A DNA stretch of 64,000 nt from Candidatus Latescibacterota bacterium (lineage in GTDB: Bacteria > Latescibacterota > UBA2968 > GCA-2709665). The position numbers and the translations under genes are program-made. Where the stretch lies: positions 2,400,001 to 2,464,000 of the forward strand of contig OZ242180.1 of the NCBI GenBank assembly GCA_965205485.1. Direction: 5' to 3'. The notes under the pieces were generated by a model. That model worked only from the letters and a program-made list of their open reading frames with translations. It ran no database searches and was not told where the DNA came from. Within the stretch, counting starts at the first letter, position 1, and each line of letters opens with the position of its first letter. This document shows, one piece after another, positions 12,814 through 24,555 of this stretch.

Positions 12814-14862
12814 CTATCGAAGCGGTTGTTTCACTCGATTGAAGTCAACCTTGTACCGATCGAGGGCCTTGAGCGCCTTGTTCCGGGGATGGGGATATAC
12901 GTCGCGTGACTTTCTGAAGGACATGACGGCGGCGTTTGTCCGGCCCTGATTCTGAAGCAGCCTTCCCTTCTGATAGTACAGCTCGGCAAGCGTCTTCTTC
13001 TTCAACGCTTCATGCCTGAGCATCTCCGCCCTGGTCAACCACTTTCCCACCTGCTCCCAGTTCGAGCTGTTTCCGTTGTCCAGTACGACCGAGGCCATAC
13101 CCAGAAGGCTCGCGTAACTGCCGTGTGCGAGCCTGAACGGTTCCTGCAATTGCTCGAACACCGGGTCCCCGGTAAAATATGCCAATCCCAGATAGCGCCC
13201 GTAGTGGAACAGCATTTCGTTCCGGCGGACCCGCTCCCAGCGGTCGGTGGGTTTCCGGTTGATGAGCTGTACGAAGAATTCTTCGCCGCGAGGATGGCGC
13301 TTCAGCTTGATCGTCCCCGGTTTCCCGCCCCTTGCAGCTTCCATCAGGAAGCCGTAGACGCGTAACTCACGGTTGGGATAGATATCGACGTCCAGGGGCA
13401 AGAAGATCGCCCGTTCGTTCGAATCGATAAACCGTTCGAGTACCGCATCCCTCTTCTTTGTCGACATGAACGGGTTGAACAGGCGTTCGCCGTATACGAG
13501 ACCCTGCAGATTGTACAATGTGACATCCGGACGGCGGTTTTCGACGTATCGATAATAGCCGATCGGCCCGGTTGTATCTCCGAAGACGAACAGGACAGCG
13601 TCTTCCGGCAAGAGGTCCAGCTGCATTTCAGCATGCCGCTCGGCGAAGTCGTTTTCGGCCCTGTCGTTTGGCTTCCAGTGGGATTGGACTGACCACCAGA
13701 CCAGGCAGACCCCGGCGAGCACAGCAGCAGAGATTCCTACCTTCGGACCGTACGGCGTTTTGTCTGTGAATTTTCCCTTCAGCCAGTGGCAGACACACTG
13801 TAGTCCGATGCCCAGCCACAACGCCAGAAGACCGTAACACAATATCGAATACGGCCGGAAGACCGCGACCTGGAAATAGTCAAAATCGAAGCGCAGCAGG
13901 ACGATCAGCACAATGCTGTTTGTAAGGAAAACCAGCAATCCCGATACCGCAATATCGGTTTGGCGCTTGCGAAACAGGAGCATCAGGCCGAGCACCGACA
14001 GCGCGAATCCCGGTAACGTCAATTGCCAAAGGAATTCGTTTCCGAGCCACTGCATGAACCTGAACCGGTCATTCCATCCGGCGCTTGGGCTGATGTCGAC
14101 TTCGACATACCCCTGCCGGCTGAAGTAGAACCAGAACGCCTTCAGGGAATCGATCGAACCGTAGAAATTGATCAGAACGTCCTGGTGAGACCGCCAGACC
14201 ATCCAGGCATAGGGCAATACCGCGCAGCATGCGAGAACGGCGAGGAGCAGCGGAAGCTTCCTGTAGAGATTCCGCCGAACGGTAAAGGCCAGCACCGCGA
14301 GTCCGGGTGCTGACAGCACCGTGAGCGGCACGTGATTGGCCAGGCTAAATCCGTAAGCCGCGGCGGCGGCAATCCAGATGCCGGTGCGGTGAGGGTGACG
14401 GACGCCGTACAGCATCAGCGCGTAGATGCCAAAGAAAAACAGCGCATTGAGCGTGTAGACCTCGGTGACGACGGCCTGAGACCAGAAATGCTCTGAGGCG
14501 GCAAACAGCACGGAGGCTGTCAGGGCGGGAATGGGCGAGGCGCCGATCAGACGGATGCAAATGTAGACGCAGCCGCACGCGAGGGCGCCCAGCGTCGCGC
14601 TGGACAGATGGCCGAGGACGGCGACGCTGCCGAAGGGAAACTGCGTGAAGAGGTAGACGATCAGCGTAAAGAGAGGATATCCCGGCGGATGGGCGACACC
14701 CAGGTGCGCGCCGGCCATCAGGAACAACCCGTCGTCTTCCAACACGACGGTGCGAGGCATCGTCAGAACGTACAGAACCAGCGGCGCCAGGATAGAGGCA
14801 ACCAGAGCCGTGCCATCGCGAAACGGCTCGATCGATCCGCGCCTGGAGTGCGCGCGCATCAT
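12814..14862 (-). CDS. DUF2723 (TMEM260-like, GT-C fold) membrane glycosyltransferase with C-terminal TPR-like helices
   Basis: EDDGLF...GVAHPPGYPLF, FWSQAV.TEVYTL and LANH motifs; multiple TM helices. Confidence 0.8.
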   Translation of the reverse strand: MMRAHSRRGSIEPFRDGTALVASILAPLVLYVLTMPRTVVLEDDGLFLMAGAHLGVAHPPGYPLFTLIVYLFTQFPFGSVAVLGHLSSATLGALACGCVYICIRLIGASPIPALTASVLFAASEHFWSQAVVTEVYTLNALFFFGIYALMLYGVRHPHRTGIWIAAAAAYGFSLANHVPLTVLSAPGLAVLAFTVRRNLYRKLPLLLAVLACCAVLPYAWMVWRSHQDVLINFYGSIDSLKAFWFYFSRQGYVEVDISPSAGWNDRFRFMQWLGNEFLWQLTLPGFALSVLGLMLLFRKRQTDIAVSGLLVFLTNSIVLIVLLRFDFDYFQVAVFRPYSILCYGLLALWLGIGLQCVCHWLKGKFTDKTPYGPKVGISAAVLAGVCLVWWSVQSHWKPNDRAENDFAERHAEMQLDLLPEDAVLFVFGDTTGPIGYYRYVENRRPDVTLYNLQGLVYGERLFNPFMSTKKRDAVLERFIDSNERAIFLPLDVDIYPNRELRVYGFLMEAARGGKPGTIKLKRHPRGEEFFVQLINRKPTDRWERVRRNEMLFHYGRYLGLAYFTGDPVFEQLQEPFRLAHGSYASLLGMASVVLDNGNSSNWEQVGKWLTRAEMLRHEALKKKTLAELYYQKGRLLQNQGRTNAAVMSFRKSRDVYPHPRNKALKALDRYKVDFNRVKQPLR

Positions 14863-15422
14863 CCGGTACCGTCCTGCACGTTATCCCCAGCCTCGGGAGG
14901 GGCCTCGCGAAATGTCCAGAGAGAATTGACGGAATAGTTCAGCACACCGGCGGGGGCGATCGCACACCCCTGCAGGATTACCAGCGGCACATCCGCGAAC
15001 TGTACGGAAAGCAGGACGAACGTGCCGTAACTCAACATTAGCGACACGAGCGATACAAGATGATATTTCAACCCCCGAATCCGGCGCTTTCCTGGCAGCG
15101 AGCGACTCCCGAAGGTCCAGTAGTTGTTGAGCAGAAAATTGGAGACGATGGACAGCTCGATCGCAATCGGCGACGCCAGCAGCGCGTGTACGCCGAGATT
15201 GAGCATCAATTGAAACGAACCGAGATTCACAACCACGCCGCCAAGGCCCGTGAGCGCGAATTTTCCGAATGTCGGAGAAAGTAATTTTCCGAATAGACGC
15301 ATGGAATTCGATGGGATGCGGGTGGTGAACAGATACGGTACGGAACGCGCCTGAGAACCCTGGCGTTCGAAGAGATTCAACAAGCGTGCGTACCACGGCG
15401 TACGCAGCGATGGTGTCTCCAA
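14859..15422 (-). CDS. GtrA-family membrane protein
   Basis: KFALTG..G.VVN, SNFLLNNYWTF and NYSVNSLWTF motifs; true start may be downstream (ATG about 15302). Confidence 0.85.
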   Translation of the reverse strand: METPSLRTPWYARLLNLFERQGSQARSVPYLFTTRIPSNSMRLFGKLLSPTFGKFALTGLGGVVVNLGSFQLMLNLGVHALLASPIAIELSIVSNFLLNNYWTFGSRSLPGKRRIRGLKYHLVSLVSLMLSYGTFVLLSVQFADVPLVILQGCAIAPAGVLNYSVNSLWTFREAPPEAGDNVQDGTG

Positions 15423-15931: not shown

Positions 15932-16027
15932 ATCAAGACATTTTGGCGGCGCACATCAGCATACGGTTTATCAGGAAACGGCATCGTTTGGTTGTCGCCG
16001 GGATGTCTACGAAAGGAGGTGATTGAC

Positions 16028-16231
16028 ATGAAGAGACGCATTGCATCACGCCTTGTAGACACGTCCGGAATTCCGTCTCGGTTGCCCATCCGGACGGAGG
16101 ACCTGACTGACGGGCAGACGGCTCGCATCTCCGGTGGAGCCATACGCTGGCGGGCGATACTGAAAGATGTGTTCGGCATCGATCTGGGCACGAATTTGCC
16201 GGAAACAGGCGCGGCTGGTCCATTGCTGTAG
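16028..16231 (+). CDS. Double-glycine-leader peptide precursor 1 (67 aa)
   Basis: RBS GAAAGGAGGTGA; 37-aa leader ending EDLTDGQTARISGG; core AIRWRAILKDVFGIDLGTNLPETGAAGPLL. Confidence 0.8.
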   Translation: MKRRIASRLVDTSGIPSRLPIRTEDLTDGQTARISGGAIRWRAILKDVFGIDLGTNLPETGAAGPLL

Positions 16232-16315
16232 TATTCGAGTTGCATACCAACCAGGTATGTTGCCTGGAAAATCAAACAGGATGTCATACGGACACAATAG
16301 AAAGGAATTGACGAA

Positions 16316-16504
16316 ATGACGGACCAGATCCTTGCCACGTCAGCTCAGGCATCTGTGGCCTGCGCTCAACTCCCAGAACAAGAAATCGGCCTGGCACGTC
16401 GTGAGATGGTGAATACATCGGGGGGTCTTCTACCACCAATTCCGCTTCCTTTAGCCCGTCTGATTGCCGAGATCATCAAGGATTACCTTGACGACGGGGA
16501 TTGA
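16316..16504 (+). CDS. Double-glycine-leader peptide precursor 2 (62 aa)
   Basis: RBS AGAAAGGA; 37-aa leader ending IGLARREMVNTSGG; core LLPPIPLPLARLIAEIIKDYLDDGD. Confidence 0.75.
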   Translation: MTDQILATSAQASVACAQLPEQEIGLARREMVNTSGGLLPPIPLPLARLIAEIIKDYLDDGD

Positions 16505-16953
16505 AGTGGGGGCCAACAGGACGAAGTCTCTCCCATTCGCCGGCCTCCGCTGTTGTGAATTCGAACTGAATCTTCAACGACCTCGTTTTTCCAATCTGAT
16601 CTTCTCCAATAGCGAAGACGAAGCCGCAAGGGTCGTCAGCGATCTGAAAACTCAACGAGTTGTGGCGATTCTGGGGAGATCCGAAAACGGCTACTTTCTG
16701 CGCATCGTTGAAGCGGCCAGAAAAAACGTGCATTAATGGCAGAGCGGATTAGTTTTAGGTTTGGGGTGAGTTCTGTGGCCTGCCATCAACCTATCGGAGG
16801 TCTCGGTGCCTCCGGCGCGGTCGGAGATCGCGTAAACGGTTTAGCCGAAATTTTCAGATCCATAGCCGTCTCGTGTTGCCAGCGTTTCGGCGAAGCTACA
16901 AACACAACGGACGTTAACTTCGGGATAATCGACTGACTCTACAGGAGGTAATC

Positions 16954-17238
16954 ATGACTCATGCATTGGCGAATCCGATGGCGACTGATGGCGGTCTTAT
17001 GGTCGTAGACTGCAATCCGCTTCAGCGGCAGGAAGAAACGCTTAACAGCGGGCAAATGGGAGACACACAGGGCGGAATCTTGATTGGACCGGCCCTTTAC
17101 TTGATTGCAAAAGCCGCTGCACCCTATGTGGCGGGTGCTGTTACTGCAATCGTCGTTGGAGTGGTTCTCGCTGAGATTGCGCCGAACAACGGGTGCAATA
17201 GCTGTACGTGCAACACAAGGCCACCTGGACGCCGTTAG
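16954..17238 (+). CDS. Double-glycine-leader peptide precursor 3 (94 aa)
   Basis: RBS ACAGGAGGT; 41-aa leader ending ETLNSGQMGDTQGG; hydrophobic 53-aa core with a CNSCTC tail. Confidence 0.8.
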   Translation: MTHALANPMATDGGLMVVDCNPLQRQEETLNSGQMGDTQGGILIGPALYLIAKAAAPYVAGAVTAIVVGVVLAEIAPNNGCNSCTCNTRPPGRR

Positions 17239-17247
17239 GTTTCGTGC

Positions 17248-17282
17248 GTGGGATAGGAGCGATTTGTTCGCTCCTATCCCAC
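17248..17282. other. Perfect 15-bp hairpin after precursor 3
   Basis: GTGGGATAGGAGCGA-TTTGT-TCGCTCCTATCCCAC; no U-tract. Confidence 0.75.
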
Positions 17283-17315: not shown

Positions 17316-18128
17316 ATGAAGGACATCATCCACACACGATCGCGGAGGGGTTGGGTCTTCGCGGCCATATCGTACACGCTGTTTTCCGTTGTGCCTGCTC
17401 TGCTGATTCTCAGATACGTCATTCAAATCGATCTTGCGATCCTGACAGCGGTCCTGGCCAGTCAGGCAGTGTCGTTTATAATCTTCCGAAAAAAGCTCTA
17501 TGAAACTGCAGCGGTAATGATGAGCGCGGTCCGCGGATTACTTGAGTCGAGTCCCGGCGCTATTGAACCAGGCCAGGATTCTAACGTCACCGAAGTGATT
17601 CTTGAAAAACAAGAGATGTACAGTTTATACTTTTTGATGTTCTGGATTTCGGGAATGTCTGTCATCGGGGTAGATGCTTTGCTTCCGTGGGCAATAGAAC
17701 TGCGATTTCCTCTTGTTGATCTATGGAAATTGATTGGAGGATTAATCGCCTTGTATGTGATTCACGAAGCGCTTCACGGTCTCGCCGCGATGGCGTGGGG
17801 AAAAATTCCATTTAGTTCGCTGCACTTTGGAATCAACGTGCGATTAATGGCCTTTTACTGCCACGCTGACAAACCGATGACACTGAGCGCATACCGGGCA
17901 TTCGCGCTACTGCCGTTAATCGTAACAACACCTGCCGCGGTTTTAGTTCTGTCGTTTGATCCGGCGATCTGGTCGGTCTTGATACTATGTTCCACGTTTG
18001 CCGGGGGCGCGGGAGATGTGATGGTTTTTTTCAAGGCTCGCAGGTATGACAATGACAGTTGGATTCAGGATCATTTGTCAGAAGTGGGTTTCACAATGTT
18101 TCCCGCAGGGGAGACACCCGCACGCTAA
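17316..18128 (+). CDS. DUF3267-like putative zincin membrane metallopeptidase
   Basis: IHEALHG (HEXXH), AFYCH, LLPL, GAGD and IQDH motifs; several TM helices; GGAGG RBS. Confidence 0.8.
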   Translation: MKDIIHTRSRRGWVFAAISYTLFSVVPALLILRYVIQIDLAILTAVLASQAVSFIIFRKKLYETAAVMMSAVRGLLESSPGAIEPGQDSNVTEVILEKQEMYSLYFLMFWISGMSVIGVDALLPWAIELRFPLVDLWKLIGGLIALYVIHEALHGLAAMAWGKIPFSSLHFGINVRLMAFYCHADKPMTLSAYRAFALLPLIVTTPAAVLVLSFDPAIWSVLILCSTFAGGAGDVMVFFKARRYDNDSWIQDHLSEVGFTMFPAGETPAR

Positions 18129-18249: not shown

Positions 18250-18851
18250 ATGGATTCACAAGAGATCACCAACAGGGATTCCCACGAGGTCCTCACGATC
18301 CGGACAGGCGCGCTTGCGATGTTCCTGCTTTCGCTTGTGATGTTTTTTGTCGCGGTAAACGTGGCCCGTGTGGTGCACTCGGGCTTGTCCGGATGGAATA
18401 TTGACCTCCAGCCGGACAGTTTCAATCTGTGGGTGTTTCTGGGAAGTCTCGTCTTGCTGGTGGTTGTCCACGAAGCGTTGCATGCCCTGGCCGCATTGCT
18501 GTGGGAAAGGCGCATTTAAGTTCGATTCGTTTCGGGTACAATTTGAAATGGCTCATCGCCTACTGTCATTGCTCGAGCCTGATGAGGAAGCGCGCCTTTC
18601 GCAGATTCCTGCTGTTGCCCCTCGCGGTCACAGTGCCGTTTGCCGGTCTTTTCCTTCTGTTGTACCCGTTTTTGTGGACACTCCTGCTCTTCAGTTTGAG
18701 TTTTTCTGCATGTGCGGGGGATGTGTTGATTGATTTCAAGGTCCAGAATTTGCCCGCCGACCTGTGGGTTCAGGATCACCCTTCGGAAATCGGATGCTAT
18801 GTCTGGCCTGAAGGGCAATCTCCGCCAGGTGGTGGAGTGTATCGGGGGTAG
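18250..18851 (+). pseudogene. Second DUF3267-like peptidase, split by a 1-nt frameshift near 18503-18505
   Basis: VHEALHA in the 18250 frame ends at TAA 18517; AYCH, LLPL, CAGD and VQDH continue in the -1 frame; one extra G restores W-G-K as in the paralogue. Confidence 0.75.
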
Positions 18852-19045: not shown

Positions 19046-19086
19046 AATACTAAATATAATATGTTTCAATACTAATTATAGTATGT
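19046..19086. promoter_or_regulatory. Tandem palindromic operator-like repeats upstream of the exporter operon
   Basis: AATACTAAATATAATATGT and AATACTAATTATAGTATGT: 17/19 identical, 22-bp period. Confidence 0.6.
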
Positions 19087-19276
19087 ATCGGCAAGTATTC
19101 GCGGACTTCGGGCGTGGCAAGCTAGAATTGAGCGGCTTGTTAAGGATTGCCCTTCGAGGCCGGAAAATCCCGGATCTCCGGCAGGAAGAACCCCTGGTAA
19201 CCGGCGAATCGCCCTCGGTCGGAAATCGATCTACATCCGGAAACGCCAATAATCCTTCCATTTCGGGAAAGGAACT

Positions 19277-22200
19277 ATGGACGTCTTTACCCACTTTTCT
19301 CAGGCGTCGAATCAAACGGAATCCGTACGGTTTCGCTTCGGAGAGATTGTAATTGTACAAGGGGCGCCTGGCGATGCGTTCTACATGCTAAAATCGGGCC
19401 GGCTGCGAGTAATCAAACGGAATACGGACGGCCAACCTGAAACCGTGGGATTTCTTTATGCCGGCGACCACTTTGGCGAGGGCGCGCTGTTGACGGGGCA
19501 GGGACATCGGGCGGTGGTGCGAGCCGCGGAGGATTCCGTGGTGCTGAAGGTGTCGCGGGATGAATTCCTCGATGTATTGAAGAAGGAGCCGGAGCTGGAG
19601 GCCTATCTGCAGGACCAGGTTGCGAATATCGCGTACCGGGACTTCACGAGGTATCTGAAGGGGTCCGTTTCCGGGGATGGCATGCGGGAGCTGTTCCAAC
19701 GTCTGAAGCGAGAGGAGGTCGCAGCGGGCGCGTCGTTCACGCAATCCGGTCACACGAGCGAGCGTTTCTGCGTGGTGGGCAGCGGCGGGTTGGACGTGAT
19801 GCTTGAGGACGGAAGCACGCACTCGCTCGACGCCGGGGATTTTTTCGAAGAGACGGATTCTACTGTCGGCGGCTCACGGACGATCCGCAGCCGGGTGAAT
19901 AGCGTTATCTACGTCTTGGAAAAGCCTGACCTGGAAAGCCTGAGTCAATCAATCCTTGCATTAACGCCCTTGAGAGAGATGGCACGGCGATTGTACAAGG
20001 AACCGGCACCGGACAGGTCGATGTCCCGCGAGATTCAATCGGGCGGAATTCACGTCCACACGGAAACGGCGGCGGTGAACAACGCCGTTGCGGCGAACGG
20101 CGGGCCATACGATGTCCCGAATTCCAGGACATCTGACGAGCAGCGCAGAACATCGACGGCGTTTCGTTTTCCGTTTCTGAAACAACACGATCAGTCCGAC
20201 TGCGGGGCGGCGTGTCTGGGGATGATCTGCAAGTATTTCAGGATGCCGATCGGGTTGAACCGGCTGCGGGACATGTGCAACGTGTCGCGGGACGGCACGT
20301 CGATGGCGGCATTGGCAGAAGCGGCGGAGACGCTTGGATTTGTCACGCGGGGCGTGCGCACCGGCTACGAAGCGTTGATGCGAACGGAATTGCCGGCCAT
20401 TCTGCACTGGGAAGGCAACCATTTCGTTGTCCTGTATGAGATCAACAAGAAGGGTGTGAAAATCGCGGATCCGGGCGTGGGTATTCGCAGATTGGCCCGG
20501 AGGGAGTTCGAGAAGAGCTGGACCAACATGGCGTTGCTCCTTGAATACACGGATCAAGTGGCGGAGAATGAACCCTCCAGATCTTCCTTCAAGCGTTTTT
20601 TCCCGTTGATCAAGCCCTATACGGCCATTCTGGTCGAGGTCCTGCTGGCGTCCCTGGTACTCAGCCTGTTGGGCCTTGCCTCGCCGGTTTTTACGCAAAC
20701 TATAGTCGACCAGGTGCTGGTGCATCACGACGAGGACCTTCTGAACCTGATGCTCGCGGGTATGGTCGTCGTGGCGCTCTTCCAGATGGGGACATCGACG
20801 CTGCGCGCGTATCTGATCGGATATATCAGCGCCAGGTTGAGCCTCACGATGTTGTCGCGGTTCTACCGCCATCTGCTGGGCCTGTCCATGCGGTTCTTTG
20901 CGTTGCGCCGCACCGGCGATCTGACCACGCGATTCAAGGAAAACGCGACGATCCAGCGGCTCTTCACCGACACGACCATTTCGGCGATCCTCGATTTTAT
21001 CATGTTGTTCGTCTATCTTGGGCTGATGTTCTACTACAATTGGGAGTTGACGCTCGTGATGTTGATTTTCGTGCCGCTCTCGGTAGGGCTCACGCTGATC
21101 TATACCCCGATCCTGAAGTCCTTCAGCCAGCGGGCATTTCTCGCTCGCGCCGAACAGTCCTCCGTACTGATCGATTCGCTGCACGGAATCGACGTTGTGA
21201 AAGCCGAAGCGGTCGAACGGGTAACGAGATGGCAGTGGGAGGGCAAATTTACAAGGGAAATCCAGATCGGATTCCGACGATTGAAAATGGAGATGCTGTT
21301 CGGCGCAGGCGGTAGTATGATCAATCTCCTGAGTTCCACGGTGATTCTGTGGTATGGCGCCTCTCTGGTTATCGACGGTGAGTTGTCAGTCGGTCAATTG
21401 ATGGCTTTCAATGCCCTTATCGGCAACGTGATGGGACCCATAATGGGATTGATCGGCGTGTGGCCCGAGGTTCAGGAAGCCCGGGTCGCCCTGGACAGGC
21501 TGAATGACGTCTATGACTCTAAGATGGAAAGTGCGCGCCAGCGCGGACACGGCCTGAGACTGAAGCAGGTTGAAGGCCGTCTGATTTTCGAAAACGTGTT
21601 CTTCAGGTACGGCGTTGGAACCGATGAACCCTACGTCTTGAACAACATCGACCTGGAACTGAAGCCTGGACGAAAGGTCGCCATCGTCGGCCGCAGCGGC
21701 GCCGGAAAAACCACGCTCGTCAAGCTCGTGCCCCGCCTGTTCGATCCCACGGAAGGGCGCGTGCTGCTGGACGGGATGGATATGCGCGATTTCGACCCTC
21801 ACTGGCTGCGCCGCCAGGTGGGCATGGTTATGCAGGACTCTTTTCTATTCAGCGGAACCATTGCGGAGAACATCGCGGTCGGAGAACCGGACGCGAATAT
21901 GGACCGCCTCCTGGAAGTCGCGAAATTGGCATGCGTTCACGACTTCGTAAACGAGATGCCCCTGGGATACGAGACGAAGGTGGGCGAACAGGGAATCGGA
22001 TTGTCCGGCGGCCAGCGGCAACGTGTTGCGATCGCGCGCGCGCTGTACCGCGATCCGGGAATACTGATCTTCGACGAAGCGACAAATGCGCTGGATACGG
22101 ACTCGGAGGCTGCGATCCAGACCAATCTGGCGCTGTTCCTGGAAAATCGCACGTCCCTGGTCATCGCCCATCGCCTGAGCACGGTGAGGGATGCGGACAC

Positions 22201-22312
22201 GATTCTCGTAATGGAAAAGGGCCACATTCTCGACACCGGCACGCACGAAGAACTGATGCTTCGACGGGGTCTTTACTATCACATGTGCAGCCAGCAGTTG
22301 CAGCTGACCTGA
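19277..22312 (+). CDS. Peptidase-containing ABC transporter (2x cNMP-binding, C39 peptidase, ABC TMD, NBD)
   Basis: QGAPGDAFY...GDHFGE cNMP domain plus a second degenerate one; QHDQSDCGAAC, HWEGNHFVV and IADP (C39 catalytic residues); GRSGAGKT, LSGGQRQR, FDEAT, IAHRL. Confidence 0.95.
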   Translation: MDVFTHFSQASNQTESVRFRFGEIVIVQGAPGDAFYMLKSGRLRVIKRNTDGQPETVGFLYAGDHFGEGALLTGQGHRAVVRAAEDSVVLKVSRDEFLDVLKKEPELEAYLQDQVANIAYRDFTRYLKGSVSGDGMRELFQRLKREEVAAGASFTQSGHTSERFCVVGSGGLDVMLEDGSTHSLDAGDFFEETDSTVGGSRTIRSRVNSVIYVLEKPDLESLSQSILALTPLREMARRLYKEPAPDRSMSREIQSGGIHVHTETAAVNNAVAANGGPYDVPNSRTSDEQRRTSTAFRFPFLKQHDQSDCGAACLGMICKYFRMPIGLNRLRDMCNVSRDGTSMAALAEAAETLGFVTRGVRTGYEALMRTELPAILHWEGNHFVVLYEINKKGVKIADPGVGIRRLARREFEKSWTNMALLLEYTDQVAENEPSRSSFKRFFPLIKPYTAILVEVLLASLVLSLLGLASPVFTQTIVDQVLVHHDEDLLNLMLAGMVVVALFQMGTSTLRAYLIGYISARLSLTMLSRFYRHLLGLSMRFFALRRTGDLTTRFKENATIQRLFTDTTISAILDFIMLFVYLGLMFYYNWELTLVMLIFVPLSVGLTLIYTPILKSFSQRAFLARAEQSSVLIDSLHGIDVVKAEAVERVTRWQWEGKFTREIQIGFRRLKMEMLFGAGGSMINLLSSTVILWYGASLVIDGELSVGQLMAFNALIGNVMGPIMGLIGVWPEVQEARVALDRLNDVYDSKMESARQRGHGLRLKQVEGRLIFENVFFRYGVGTDEPYVLNNIDLELKPGRKVAIVGRSGAGKTTLVKLVPRLFDPTEGRVLLDGMDMRDFDPHWLRRQVGMVMQDSFLFSGTIAENIAVGEPDANMDRLLEVAKLACVHDFVNEMPLGYETKVGEQGIGLSGGQRQRVAIARALYRDPGILIFDEATNALDTDSEAAIQTNLALFLENRTSLVIAHRLSTVRDADTILVMEKGHILDTGTHEELMLRRGLYYHMCSQQLQLT

Positions 22313-22339: not shown

Positions 22340-23743
22340 ATGGCGGAACCGCGACAATTGGCGTCTTCGGGAGCGTCGTCGCCGATGCATCTGCCCGCGC
22401 GGGAGCAGGTTTCGGAGGAGATGCAGGCGTTTTTCGGGTCGCTGAGGCCGTTCTGGGGGCGGGCGCTGCTCTACGTCGTTCTTCTGTTTGTCGGGATCGC
22501 GGTGTTCTGGGCATGGCGGGGCAAGGTGGACGTTGTGGCTTCGGCGCCGTTTCAACTGGTGCCGATGGGGAAGGTGAAGACGTTGCAGGCGCGCCGCGGC
22601 GGCGAGATCGAGCACATCGGCGTCAGCGAGGGCGATCGCATCGAAGAGGGGCAGTTGCTGTTCAAGCTGAAGTCTTGGGAAACCTGGGGAGACCTTCGAG
22701 AGCTGGAACAGGCGGAAATGGCGTATCAACAGGCCGGATACGACTTCAAACAGGTATTGCCCCGGAGATCGGAATTGAACCTGGAGACGATCGCGTCGCT
22801 CGAAAAGCGACTGGCCGTTCTGCAGCGGTTCATGGCGGCGCATCAGAACGCCCTCAGGGACTACCACGACGACGCGGGTGATGCCGAAGGATCCGGAAGT
22901 GACAATTCCGAGGCGGAACTGCAGGCACAGATCGGCTTCAGGCAGGCGGAAATCGATCACTTGAAGCAGGACTATCTTCAGCAGAAGGCATTGTTCCAGA
23001 GGAAACTGATCAGCCGGGTGGATATCAATCAGGCGCGTGTACGGTACCTGAGCGCACTCGCAGCGCTTCCGGGACGCATGTCGGAAATATACAGGAACGA
23101 AACGGCCGTCCAGGACCTCAAACGTCAGATTCTGGAGGCGCGAATCGAGCACGGCCGCGAGGCGTCAAAGATGAAACACGCGTACGAAACCGCGCGATTG
23201 AGACTGGAGCAGGCGCGCAAACGCGTCGACCGCCGGCTGGAAGCGGAGTCGGACCTCATATTGGCGCCGGAATCCGGCATTGTAACGCGGGTGGAGGTGA
23301 ATGCGCTCGGACAGGTTATCAGCAAAGGGCAGGCGCTGGTTTCAGTAGCGCCGGCGTCCGCTCCGATCGTCGCCGAGCTTACGGTATTGAACAGGGACGT
23401 GGGCATGCTGAAACCGGGTCAGATCGTGAAGCTGAAATACGACGCCTTCGCATTCCAGGATTTCGGAATCAAACGCGGGTGGCTCAAACAGATCTCGCCG
23501 GATGCCGTCATCGATGAGATTGTCGGACCGGTTTTCAGGGGTGTCGTTGAATTGGAAGAAACCACCGTGGACGTAAAGGGACAGGAGAAACCGCTCCGGT
23601 TCGGCATGAAGGGCACCGCGGAGATCATGACGGACCGCCAATCCGTCCTGCTGATGCTTCTGAGTCCTCTGCGAAGGCTTTACGAGTCAGCATCGTACGA
23701 CGCCGTAAAGTCGGCGGCAGCTCAGCCGGAGGATTCGTTATGA
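22340..23743 (+). CDS. HlyD-family membrane fusion protein
   Basis: Single TM helix, GGEIEHIGVSEGDRI lipoyl half-motif, coiled coil, APESGIV, KYDAFAFQDFG, LRFGM. Confidence 0.92.
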   Translation: MAEPRQLASSGASSPMHLPAREQVSEEMQAFFGSLRPFWGRALLYVVLLFVGIAVFWAWRGKVDVVASAPFQLVPMGKVKTLQARRGGEIEHIGVSEGDRIEEGQLLFKLKSWETWGDLRELEQAEMAYQQAGYDFKQVLPRRSELNLETIASLEKRLAVLQRFMAAHQNALRDYHDDAGDAEGSGSDNSEAELQAQIGFRQAEIDHLKQDYLQQKALFQRKLISRVDINQARVRYLSALAALPGRMSEIYRNETAVQDLKRQILEARIEHGREASKMKHAYETARLRLEQARKRVDRRLEAESDLILAPESGIVTRVEVNALGQVISKGQALVSVAPASAPIVAELTVLNRDVGMLKPGQIVKLKYDAFAFQDFGIKRGWLKQISPDAVIDEIVGPVFRGVVELEETTVDVKGQEKPLRFGMKGTAEIMTDRQSVLLMLLSPLRRLYESASYDAVKSAAAQPEDSL

Positions 23744-24555
23744 CTCCTCGCGCGGAAGATGGGAACCCGATTCCTTCCCGGGAAATCACGCTCGTCCAGG
23801 TCAATGGCGCCGGTGTGTCGCTGAGTCAGGTCGTCCGTCAACTGGGGGTCGTCGACAAACTCGATTTCTTCGGTGAATTCGCGCGCAGAGAACTCGTGCG
23901 CCAGCTTGCGGTCCGGGAAGGCATCCGTTCAAAACCGGAAGACATCCAGCGCGACGTGGACGACTGGCGCTATCGACATCGCCTGGAACGTGTTGAAGAC
24001 ACGGAAGCGTGGCTCCGGTCCCGAGGCATTACCCTCGGCGACGTCGCAGAAGACGCTCAGGCGAAACGGTTGGAGCGTGCGTTGTCCGACAAGGTCGTGG
24101 ACAGAAGGATCCAACCGTACTTCGCTCAGCACAAGCTGGATTTCGACGAGGCGGAAGTCAGCTGGATTTTTCACCGTAATAGAGGCGTGATAGAAGAAAT
24201 CGGGCTTCAGGCCATAGAAGAAGGCGCTGATTTTTGCAGAATGGCCCGCGAGTACTCACAAGATGAACGCACGCGTCCGTCCGGCGGGTTTGTCGGGCGC
24301 GTTCGACGCGGACAGTTGCCGAAGGGTATTGCGGCGCGCCTCTTCGCCGCCGAACCTGGTGAAGTTTTCGGACCCGAAAAGGCATCGGGCGGCTTCGCGT
24401 TGTATATGCTGCAGCGGAACTTTCCGGCAGTCCTTGATGATAGCGTTTCAAATGAGATTCGCGATACGCTATTCAGTCAGTGGCTGCAGAGTGAGTTTCA
24501 GCGGGCGGAAATACACTACCCGATCTGGGAAACCGCGAAGGCGGTCCAGGAGTAG
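23740..24555 (+). CDS. PpiC/parvulin-type peptidyl-prolyl isomerase-like protein
   Basis: DFCRMAREYSQD.RTRPSGGFVG rotamase motif; ATGA overlap with hlyD. Confidence 0.8.
   Translation: MTPRAEDGNPIPSREITLVQVNGAGVSLSQVVRQLGVVDKLDFFGEFARRELVRQLAVREGIRSKPEDIQRDVDDWRYRHRLERVEDTEAWLRSRGITLGDVAEDAQAKRLERALSDKVVDRRIQPYFAQHKLDFDEAEVSWIFHRNRGVIEEIGLQAIEEGADFCRMAREYSQDERTRPSGGFVGRVRRGQLPKGIAARLFAAEPGEVFGPEKASGGFALYMLQRNFPAVLDDSVSNEIRDTLFSQWLQSEFQRAEIHYPIWETAKAVQE

Follow-up and report, generated by a model that had tools for sequence, protein, structure and literature searches.

Three small genes of a Candidatus Latescibacterota bacterium (GenBank assembly GCA_965205485.1, contig OZ242180.1) encode precursor peptides whose leaders belong, we are nearly certain, to a real and uncatalogued family of long double-glycine leaders, and these leaders are very probably substrates of the adjacent cNMP-C39-ABC exporter. 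Judged from the aligned sequences, the family is marked by C(-22), L(-19) and P(-18), by a length of 37-44 residues and by a variable residue at position -1. Leader-based mining overlooks these peptides. The family is found in 82 clusters and in 41 genomes, but of 78 precursors not one scores high enough for a leader or bacteriocin model. Coordinates without a locus label refer to the window, which is the whole stretch of 64,000 nucleotides that was analysed (positions 2,400,001 to 2,464,000 of the forward strand of the contig).

Precursor genes and their neighbourhood

The precursor array sits 2-3 kb upstream of the genes for the cNMP-C39-ABC exporter, an HlyD protein and a PpiC-like protein. 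The features of the cluster are:

16028..16231, + strand: precursor 1 (ORF1), 67 aa; leader of 37 aa (16028-16138) with a Gly-Gly end; Shine-Dalgarno (SD) sequence at 16013-16020
16316..16504, + strand: precursor 2 (ORF2), 62 aa; leader of 37 aa (16316-16426)
16954..17238, + strand: precursor 3 (ORF3), 94 aa; leader of 41 aa (16954-17076)
17248..17282, + strand: perfect 15-bp hairpin just 3' of the precursor array; -37.3 kcal/mol, z -5.96, 0/200 shuffles
17316..18128, + strand: DUF3267 intramembrane zinc peptidase, 270 aa; PF11667 with 58 bits against a cut-off of 27; HEALH and a distal Gly-Asp
18250..18851, + strand: second DUF3267 gene, frameshifted near 18500-18519, which puts the HExxH half and the Asp half into different frames
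19277..22312, + strand: C39-ABC exporter, 1011 aa; two cNMP-binding domains, C39 peptidase, membrane and ATPase domains
22340..23743, + strand: HlyD-family membrane fusion protein, 467 aa; PF13437; TIGR01843 with 201.6 bits against a cut-off of 208.65
23740..24555, + strand: PpiC/SurA-like protein, 271 aa; PF00639
25507..27300, + strand: two CPBP (Abi/CAAX) intramembrane proteases; PF02517; EExxxR, FxxxH and HxxxN motifs

The three small ORFs with Gly-Gly leaders, proposed earlier from the letters of the DNA, are real. In the translations the Gly-Gly ends fall at residues 37, 37 and 41, and all three 12-residue stretches quoted for positions -12 to -1 are exact. All three leaders have L(-12) and GG; ORF2 and ORF3 combine these with M(-7) and T(-4), ORF1 with T(-7) and I(-4). 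The strong ribosome-binding site claimed for each gene is present in ORF1 and ORF3, which match AAGGAGGT over 8 nt (spacer 7) and 7 nt (spacer 4), but the site of ORF2 is only moderate because its SD match is 5 nt long with a spacer of 9.

Precursor 1 has a neutral core of 30 aa (3.2 kDa, 3179 Da predicted), and orthologues of this precursor occur at L068 and at 13 of the 14 genus loci. The core of precursor 2 is acidic and has 25 aa (2.8 kDa, 2774 Da predicted); it reads as an amphipathic helix with a hydrophobic moment of 0.80, which was equalled by 8 of 2000 shuffles, while an amphipathic helix in cores 1 and 3 is not above the shuffles (564/2000 and 1686/2000). With 53 aa (5.3 kDa, 5321 Da predicted), the core of precursor 3 carries a membrane-helix-like stretch (19-residue hydropathy 2.14) and a Cys-rich basic tail with three C-terminal Cys. 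Protein-atlas matches all stay under the 0.9 mark and are leads only; for precursor 3 they point to class II bacteriocin clusters, at 0.87.

A fourth, decayed precursor at 16736-16936, where the spacer contains a 66-aa ORF, was not supported. This ORF has an ORF2-leader-like start, 'SVAC' at the same position and a 19-nt repeat common to ORF2. A DNA profile of 19 ORF2-like leaders gave no match at 16736-16936, and the 450-bp spacer matches none of 30 related loci. Promoter and terminator scans remained at chance level. The hairpin behind the array has no T-run and is absent from the terminator-scan listing; it is likely a transcript-stabilising or terminating element.

The C39 domain of the exporter (PF03412, 135.7 bits) has sequence matches to the structures of PCAT1, LahT and ComA, and its triad Cys309/His382/Asp398 is invariant in all 42 aligned homologues. 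The first cNMP domain keeps the nucleotide-pocket Gly-Glu and Arg, and the second one looks degenerate. The PpiC-like gene accompanies the exporter in 31/31 loci, and its product, a candidate chaperone of the precursors or of the exporter, stays below the TIGR04500 (MirC type) cut-off with 83.2 against 180 bits. MirC, a TIGR04500 relative, is described as an essential chaperone-like partner in a graspetide pathway (PMC13097080). At least one CPBP gene comes after the PpiC-like gene in the window and in 13 of 14 genus loci, and the two CPBP proteases are candidates for general immunity.

The DUF3267 gene directly behind the array (17316..18128) is likely the cognate immunity or processing partner of precursor 3. 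The second, frameshifted one is likely an orphan partner gene in decay. Near 18502 the contig of a relative is one base longer, and an assembly slip is unlikely because contigs of two samples cross the site without a gap.

Searches of the cluster with Pfam and NCBIfam domain models found no modifying enzyme. Eight TolC-type genes (16 domain matches) lie elsewhere in the genome, unlinked to the cluster. The only other C39 exporter of the genome belongs to a complete NHLM system (L003:12102-19018), and export through it was rejected, since this system lies outside the window, about 36 kb before the cluster, with an NHLP precursor of its own. On the minus strand, 12814-15422 encodes a GtrA-like flippase and a TMEM260-like glycosyltransferase, which are divergent beside the precursors in most genus loci; the pair is probably context because TMEM260 is missing or partial in several of them. 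An A+T-rich 22-nt tandem repeat at 19046-19089, 190 bp before the exporter start, is a possible regulator site.

A leader family defined by its upstream columns

The sequence-only reading had described a distinct leader subfamily for this exporter on the strength of the pattern between -12 and -1. The family itself is borne out, but what defines it lies further upstream. The canonical C39 recognition positions described for PCAT1, LahT and ComA are L(-12), E(-8), leucine or another hydrophobic residue at -7, and -4, and LahT150 fully processed a V-4T variant (PMC6959990, PMC6363468). As the -12, -8, -7 and -4 columns of the present leaders are these same positions, they do not define a subfamily.

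The conserved register is C(-22)xxL(-19)P(-18)x5L(-12)x3[EQ][MIT]xx[ITVA]xG[GL]. Among 102 homologous leaders, G(-2) and L(-19) are found in all 102, L(-12) in 96, P(-18) in 85, E/Q(-8) in 84, C(-22) in 74 and M(-7) in 68, and hydrophobic residues at -12 and -7 occur together with G(-2) in 83. The strict motif first proposed for -12 to -1 is kept in only 36 of the 102. Leader lengths are 37-44 aa, mostly 37 (n=59) or 41 (n=25) and otherwise 44, 42, 39 or 38. The residue at -1 is Gly in 82 leaders, Leu in 16, Ala in two, Thr in one and Gln in one. The sixteen leaders with Leu end in Asp-Gly-Leu in the canonical register (e.g. L014:6692, L015:6026, L019:6237, L021:7524, L029:5465), and at L014 the sole precursor within 8 kb of the exporter is of this type.

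When 1.84 billion representatives were searched, 92 hits were obtained, 10 of which were set aside as repeat proteins; the other 82 are full leader matches, all with L(-19), and the family spans 82 clusters at 50% identity. In these 82 representatives the -1 residue can also be Glu (6), Met (2) or Lys (1), three of these rows looking chimeric, and Gly-Gln ends occur too.

None of the 78 precursors reaches any NCBIfam cut-off (best TIGR03949, with 16 bits against 21.5) or, in Pfam and NCBIfam, the cut-off of a bacteriocin model. No Pfam leader model matched them, and one Gly/Ala-rich core alone passes DUF6861. As a positive control for the leader models, the NHLP precursor of the genome scores 64 against a cut-off of 50.9. 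Two Gly-Gly ORFs from a plain scan that the seed model had missed (L006:3588, L027:3989) show the family's C(-22), L(-19), L(-12) and M(-7) as well.

Eighty metagenome loci with more distant C39 exporters served as a control and contain 53 motif-matching Gly-Gly ORFs. L(-19) is present in 7 of the 33 control leaders of at least 22 aa, and two of these seven adjoin exporters that are 49-57% identical to that of the window. In three control loci (L099:8003-8200, L110:9463-9693, L160:903-1091) an I-x-I/R-x-D-L-like stretch stands at the place of L(-19), with Asp-Leu at -20/-19, so the L(-19) element may have wider kin. At the distant exporter loci L091, L095 and L158 the leaders are Lys-rich and 24-25 aa long.

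Distribution and link to the exporter

With a model built from the three leaders, 30 of 31 exporter loci yield precursors. These number 76, all with an SD, and all lie on the strand of the exporter and at most 8 kb upstream of it; the lone locus without a precursor starts inside the exporter. Nine further weak leader matches without a full-length match or SD were left out, and with added loci the set amounts to 102. In the genome itself the leader model matches these three precursors only (next E 0.14), and further precursors elsewhere in the genome were therefore rejected.

The family was found in 41 of 168 genomes of the phylum, all in two families of one Latescibacterota order, and in none of 115 genomes of other Latescibacterota families. 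Out of 61 genomes, 40 have both the leader and the exporter (taken as present at 50% identity or more), 19 have neither and two have one only. Both of these are drafts, G049 with an exporter fragment only and G036 with a leader only. What counts against the leaders being exporter substrates is the polar Thr at -7 of ORF1, a position that is important in LahT and PCAT1.

The closest exporters are 72-95% identical and come from MAGs labelled Latescibacterota or Gemmatimonadota. Related loci are present in sponge metagenomes as well, one of them on a 17.6-kb contig, and the host order consists of uncultured bacteria; Latescibacterota are described as well-known sponge symbionts (PMC9426513).

A paralogous exporter clade (53-56% identity, the starred branch of a quick exporter tree) has its own leader version in the same register. 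The profile of this version gave 14 matches in 8 of 53 genomes, 12 of them within about 12 kb of such an exporter, and no match in the genome of the window. At loci of this clade (L071, L078, L081, L082; e.g. L082:142-5444) the leaders are 38-42 aa long and the cores 110-155 aa, very acidic and up to four in tandem.

A few precursors have no listed exporter nearby (G014, G023, G022, G034). In the congener G014, the syntenic exporter beside four precursors matches in two short pieces only (L068/L069); 2.8 Mb away lies an exporter of 59% identity whose two divergent precursors have kept L(-19).

Chance expectation and selection

The likeness of the three ORFs might be a chance match among small Gly-Gly-containing frames. 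Of the small ORFs of the genome that have an SD of 5 nt or more, 3288 in all, 611 have Gly-Gly at a leader-like position, and the pattern of the sequence-only reading, in its GG form, matches 29 places in all six frames. With GG or GA allowed, this pattern occurs in only 5 of the 3288 ORFs, three of which are the precursors. Adding L(-19) and [PQS](-18) to the six-frame pattern leaves exactly the three precursors; both the pattern and this extension were derived from the three after seeing the data.

We also scored a profile of 75 homologous leaders with the three of the window held out. The precursors rank 1-3 of 53,607 small ORFs, with 52, 46 and 44 bits against 16.5 for the next best, though the test is not fully independent because a model seeded by the three had served to find these 75 homologues in the first place. 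With only the part upstream of -12 the scores are 28, 25 and 20 (next 13.9), and with only the last 12 residues they are 16.6, 12 and 12 (next 9.6), so the upstream part separates the three precursors better.

Pooled pairwise dN/dS is 0.30-0.36 for the leaders and 0.20-0.39 for the alignable cores, for which only pairs of 50% likeness or more were used; the genes are thus under purifying selection. For precursor 1 the values are 0.35 (leader) and 0.20 (core), for precursor 2 they are 0.30 and 0.39. The cores had been said to diverge while the leaders align; this is true between the three paralogues (leader identity 22-27%, core identity 8-20%) and not between orthologues, whose cores are conserved. 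Family-wide pairs with different core types average 30% identity in the leader and 15% in the core. With 102 homologues, dN/dS well below 1, a fixed position before the exporter, the distribution in the phylum and the held-out ranks, a chance match is refuted and its probability negligible.

Comparison with known systems

In its layout the cluster resembles those of class IIa microcins such as microcin V (CvaC, Cvi, CvaB, CvaA, TolC), as far as these are described in PMC10233263 and PMC12219008: a Gly-Gly precursor, a C39-ABC transporter with the triad, a membrane fusion protein, an unlinked TolC, an adjacent membrane protein, no modifying enzyme and several precursors per exporter. PMC10233263 gives the same five-part layout for class II microcins and describes the majority as neutral or anionic. 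The present leaders (37, 37 and 41 aa; 37-44 aa in the family) are longer than the 15-18 aa of class II microcins, and the cores, with 30, 25 and 53 aa (3.2, 2.8 and 5.3 kDa), do not fit the class II format of 60-90 aa and about 5-10 kDa; cores 1 and 2 in particular are far below the 60-90 aa of the ten class II microcins in PMC10233263. Two cNMP domains on the exporter, the PpiC-like gene and the DUF3267/CPBP protease partners are further differences, and the core-matched membrane protease of precursor 3 has 270 aa against a bound of 216 aa for verified microcin immunity proteins (PMC12219008).

The export trio is already known from cyanobacterial group I bacteriocin clusters, which according to PMC3140520 have a long-type C39 transporter with cNMP/CAP_ED, HlyD and a SurA-like rotamase, and the same type of cNMP-C39-ABC exporter is represented by HetC (PMC10986499). 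The present cluster belongs to another phylum, and by Pfam and NCBIfam its leaders are not NHLP, Nif11, HetP or DUF37. Its substrates are conserved, lie beside the exporter and pair with membrane proteases, whereas HetC has no known substrate.

With the substrates of LahT, PCAT1 and ComA (PMC6363468, PMC6959990, PMC10885120) the leaders share L(-12), E/Q(-8), a hydrophobic residue at -7, I/V/T(-4) and G(-2). They differ from the substrates described there by the invariant L(-19) with C(-22) and P(-18) and by Leu(-1) in 16 of 102. In length the family lies between short leaders (15-24 aa) and NHLP/Nif11 leaders (>70 aa). In Bacteroidetes, class I lanthipeptide leaders (LxLxKx5L, Gly-Gly; PMC7268733) likewise have an extra motif upstream of the recognition helix and an adjacent C39 exporter; their motif uses other residues and, as we read it, another spacing, and the lanthipeptide enzymes are absent from the present cluster.

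Characterised PCATs cut after GG, GA or GS, and those of thermoglycocin and orniglycocin, which cut after Gly-Lys, are a precedent for a bulky -1 residue (PMC12457901). In the Gly-Lys case the anchors shift to -9/-14, whereas the Gly-Leu leaders keep -7/-12. If they are cut, Gly-Leu leaders in the canonical register would widen the specificity of C39 peptidases.

We found no paper on the leader family or the cluster in the main texts of the open literature, though the supplements of PMC3140520, PMC9426513 and PMC11832590 may list such clusters as RiPP-like. Measured against this literature, the logic is class II microcin-like.

Core types and the following membrane gene

The 102 cores fall into 19 clusters. 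In 27 cases, all with leaders of 41-44 aa, the precursor is followed by a membrane ORF, and the core cluster agrees with the cluster of the next gene (adjusted Rand 0.56, reached in 0 of 10,000 permutations; n=27, with kin treated as independent, which overstates the agreement). Cores of the precursor 3 type are followed by one DUF3267 subtype in 4/4 cases, a second core type by another DUF3267 subtype in 8/8 (one of them in the sister family) and a third by a divergent CPBP in 2/2, one per family. A small membrane protein comes after the Trp-first Gly-Leu cores, by clustering in 4 of 5; the fifth, at L019, also has one. Three types of core/partner pair recur in both families, and in the quick exporter tree the nearest neighbours of the window carry three different pairs. 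Contigs of co-occurring strains agree with the window as far as the Gly-Gly (16139) or 17079-17090, beyond which a different core follows.

The match between core type and membrane gene suggests swappable toxin-immunity cassettes, and the pairing together with the switch at Gly-Gly is what an exchange of core-plus-partner cassettes would leave. The pairing as such fits either an immunity or a maturation role of the membrane gene. CPBP proteins are cited as bacteriocin self-immunity factors (PMC8692603). The only characterised DUF3267 protein we found, TmcP, is a maturation protease that removes a leader (PMC13712780).

Precursor 3 might accordingly be a TMcin-like membrane-inserted peptide that is matured by its cognate DUF3267 protein through leader removal or a second cut, and the pairing would then reflect enzyme-substrate matching. 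In the TMcin system (TmcA, TmcP) the precursor has one membrane helix, a C-terminal disulfide and a 45-aa leader that the DUF3267 protein takes off (PMC13712780); core 3, the only one of the three with this likeness, has a helix-like stretch and three C-terminal Cys beside DUF3267, and the 4/4 and 8/8 subtype matches also agree with such a role. But the C39 triad is intact and the leader retains the canonical C39 register; loci without DUF3267 have leaders of this family too, and two relatives of core 3 (L009, L011) are followed by CPBP instead. As described in PMC13712780, TMcins use TmcBC and TmcE rather than a C39 exporter and occur in Gram-positive hosts, and a plain ABC transporter with the TMcin escort protein was not seen on inspection of the ORFs of the cluster and their domain matches. 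We consider this maturation unlikely. If the immunity role is true, the core-matched DUF3267 genes give DUF3267 a second role beside TMcin maturation.

Proposed mechanism

On balance and with modest confidence, we favour antibacterial action over signalling and TMcin-like maturation: the unmodified cores, cut and secreted by the adjacent exporter, would act as microcin-like antibacterial peptides. From what is known of the family, the C39 domain of the exporter would cut the precursors after Gly-Gly (-1), and the cores would leave through HlyD and an unlinked TolC-type channel. Residues -12, -7 and -4 may sit in the C39 groove as their counterparts do in LahT and PCAT1, and the stretch -24 to -18 with L(-19) is likely a second recognition element for either the exporter or the PpiC-like protein. 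The first cNMP domain may gate export on a nucleotide signal. With adjacent, conserved substrates for a cNMP-bearing peptide exporter, both nucleotide gating and the role of the PpiC-like protein become testable. DUF3267 and CPBP proteases would protect the producer, and cores would be exchanged at the Gly-Gly junction together with the partner gene.

Several observations count against antibacterial action. Behind five membrane-helix-like cores there is no membrane gene, 12 of the 27 paired cores fall short of the helix-like threshold applied, and many cores of the sister family are strongly acidic with no membrane gene nearby. Moreover, no membrane gene directly follows any of the 59 precursors with 37-aa leaders, so cores 1 and 2 are without evident cognate immunity. 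The shortness of cores 1 and 2, the 270-aa size of the DUF3267 protein, the leader-removing role of its characterised relative TmcP and the lack of any precursor above a bacteriocin cut-off count against it too.

These short, conserved, neutral to acidic cores 1 and 2 would also suit secreted signals, pheromone-like or host-directed, which the nucleotide-sensing exporter would release under stress and which membrane proteases would trim or turn over. The exporter has two cNMP domains, several sister loci have an AraC-type response regulator upstream, and a similar domain of HetC, which has been proposed as a signalling-peptide exporter, binds ppGpp (PMC10986499). Against signalling, domain searches of the window's cluster found no sensor kinase or regulator there, and conflict cassettes account better for the core-specific membrane partners and for the exchange of cores at the cleavage site. 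We regard signalling as a possible but clearly less probable function than the antibacterial action favoured here.

Glycosyltransferases in sister lineages

In sister loci, a fusion of glycosyltransferase (GT) domains GT4 and GT28-C and a second GT4 gene travel with the precursors and the exporter, e.g. at L019:1394-5487. The GT-bearing loci are L019-L030, L032-L034, L072, L075-L077, L079, L084 and L085, and a UDP-GlcNAc 2-epimerase often comes after the PpiC-like gene in them. Their cores are more acidic, and 18 of 49 start with Cys as against 0 of 51 in the genus of the window. The gene content makes the sister lineages a candidate glycosylated form of the system and a candidate new glycopeptide pathway. 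Thermoglycocin and orniglycocin GTs are GccA relatives (PMC12457901), whereas those of the sister loci are GT4.

The window locus could then be an enzyme-less remnant of a glycosylated-peptide pathway, its extended leader being a GT recognition site that is inertial or read in trans. Besides the difference in Cys-first cores, this would agree with the GT4 pair directly before the precursors in 15 of 15 sister-family loci with upstream DNA and with one GT4 gene in 24 of 53 order genomes, all leader-bearing. Yet the sister GT4 gene, searched with one query, was found neither in the genome of the window nor in its 14 congeners, where purifying selection nevertheless acts on the upstream leader part (dN/dS 0.31-0.47). 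The paralogous exporter clade, which is GT-free, also keeps C(-22) and L(-19). A remnant of this kind is thus very improbable, and modification in trans by the sister-lineage GT4 was rejected on the same single-query search of the genome.

A broader and speculative proposal, to which we give a rather low probability, is that the locus belongs to an enzyme-free branch of an undescribed Latescibacterota peptide class. This class would combine a two-site leader, a nucleotide-gated exporter cutting Gly-Leu and Gly-Gly in one register, cores that swap with intramembrane-protease antidotes and, in the sisters, GT4-glycosylated Cys-first acidic cores; the L(-19)/C(-22) strand would be read by the PpiC-like protein or a cNMP domain.

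One of the GT-bearing loci (L072:5241-10416, in G022) contains three tandem repeats, each with a constant first precursor, a variable second precursor and a membrane gene, an arrangement like a cassette array.
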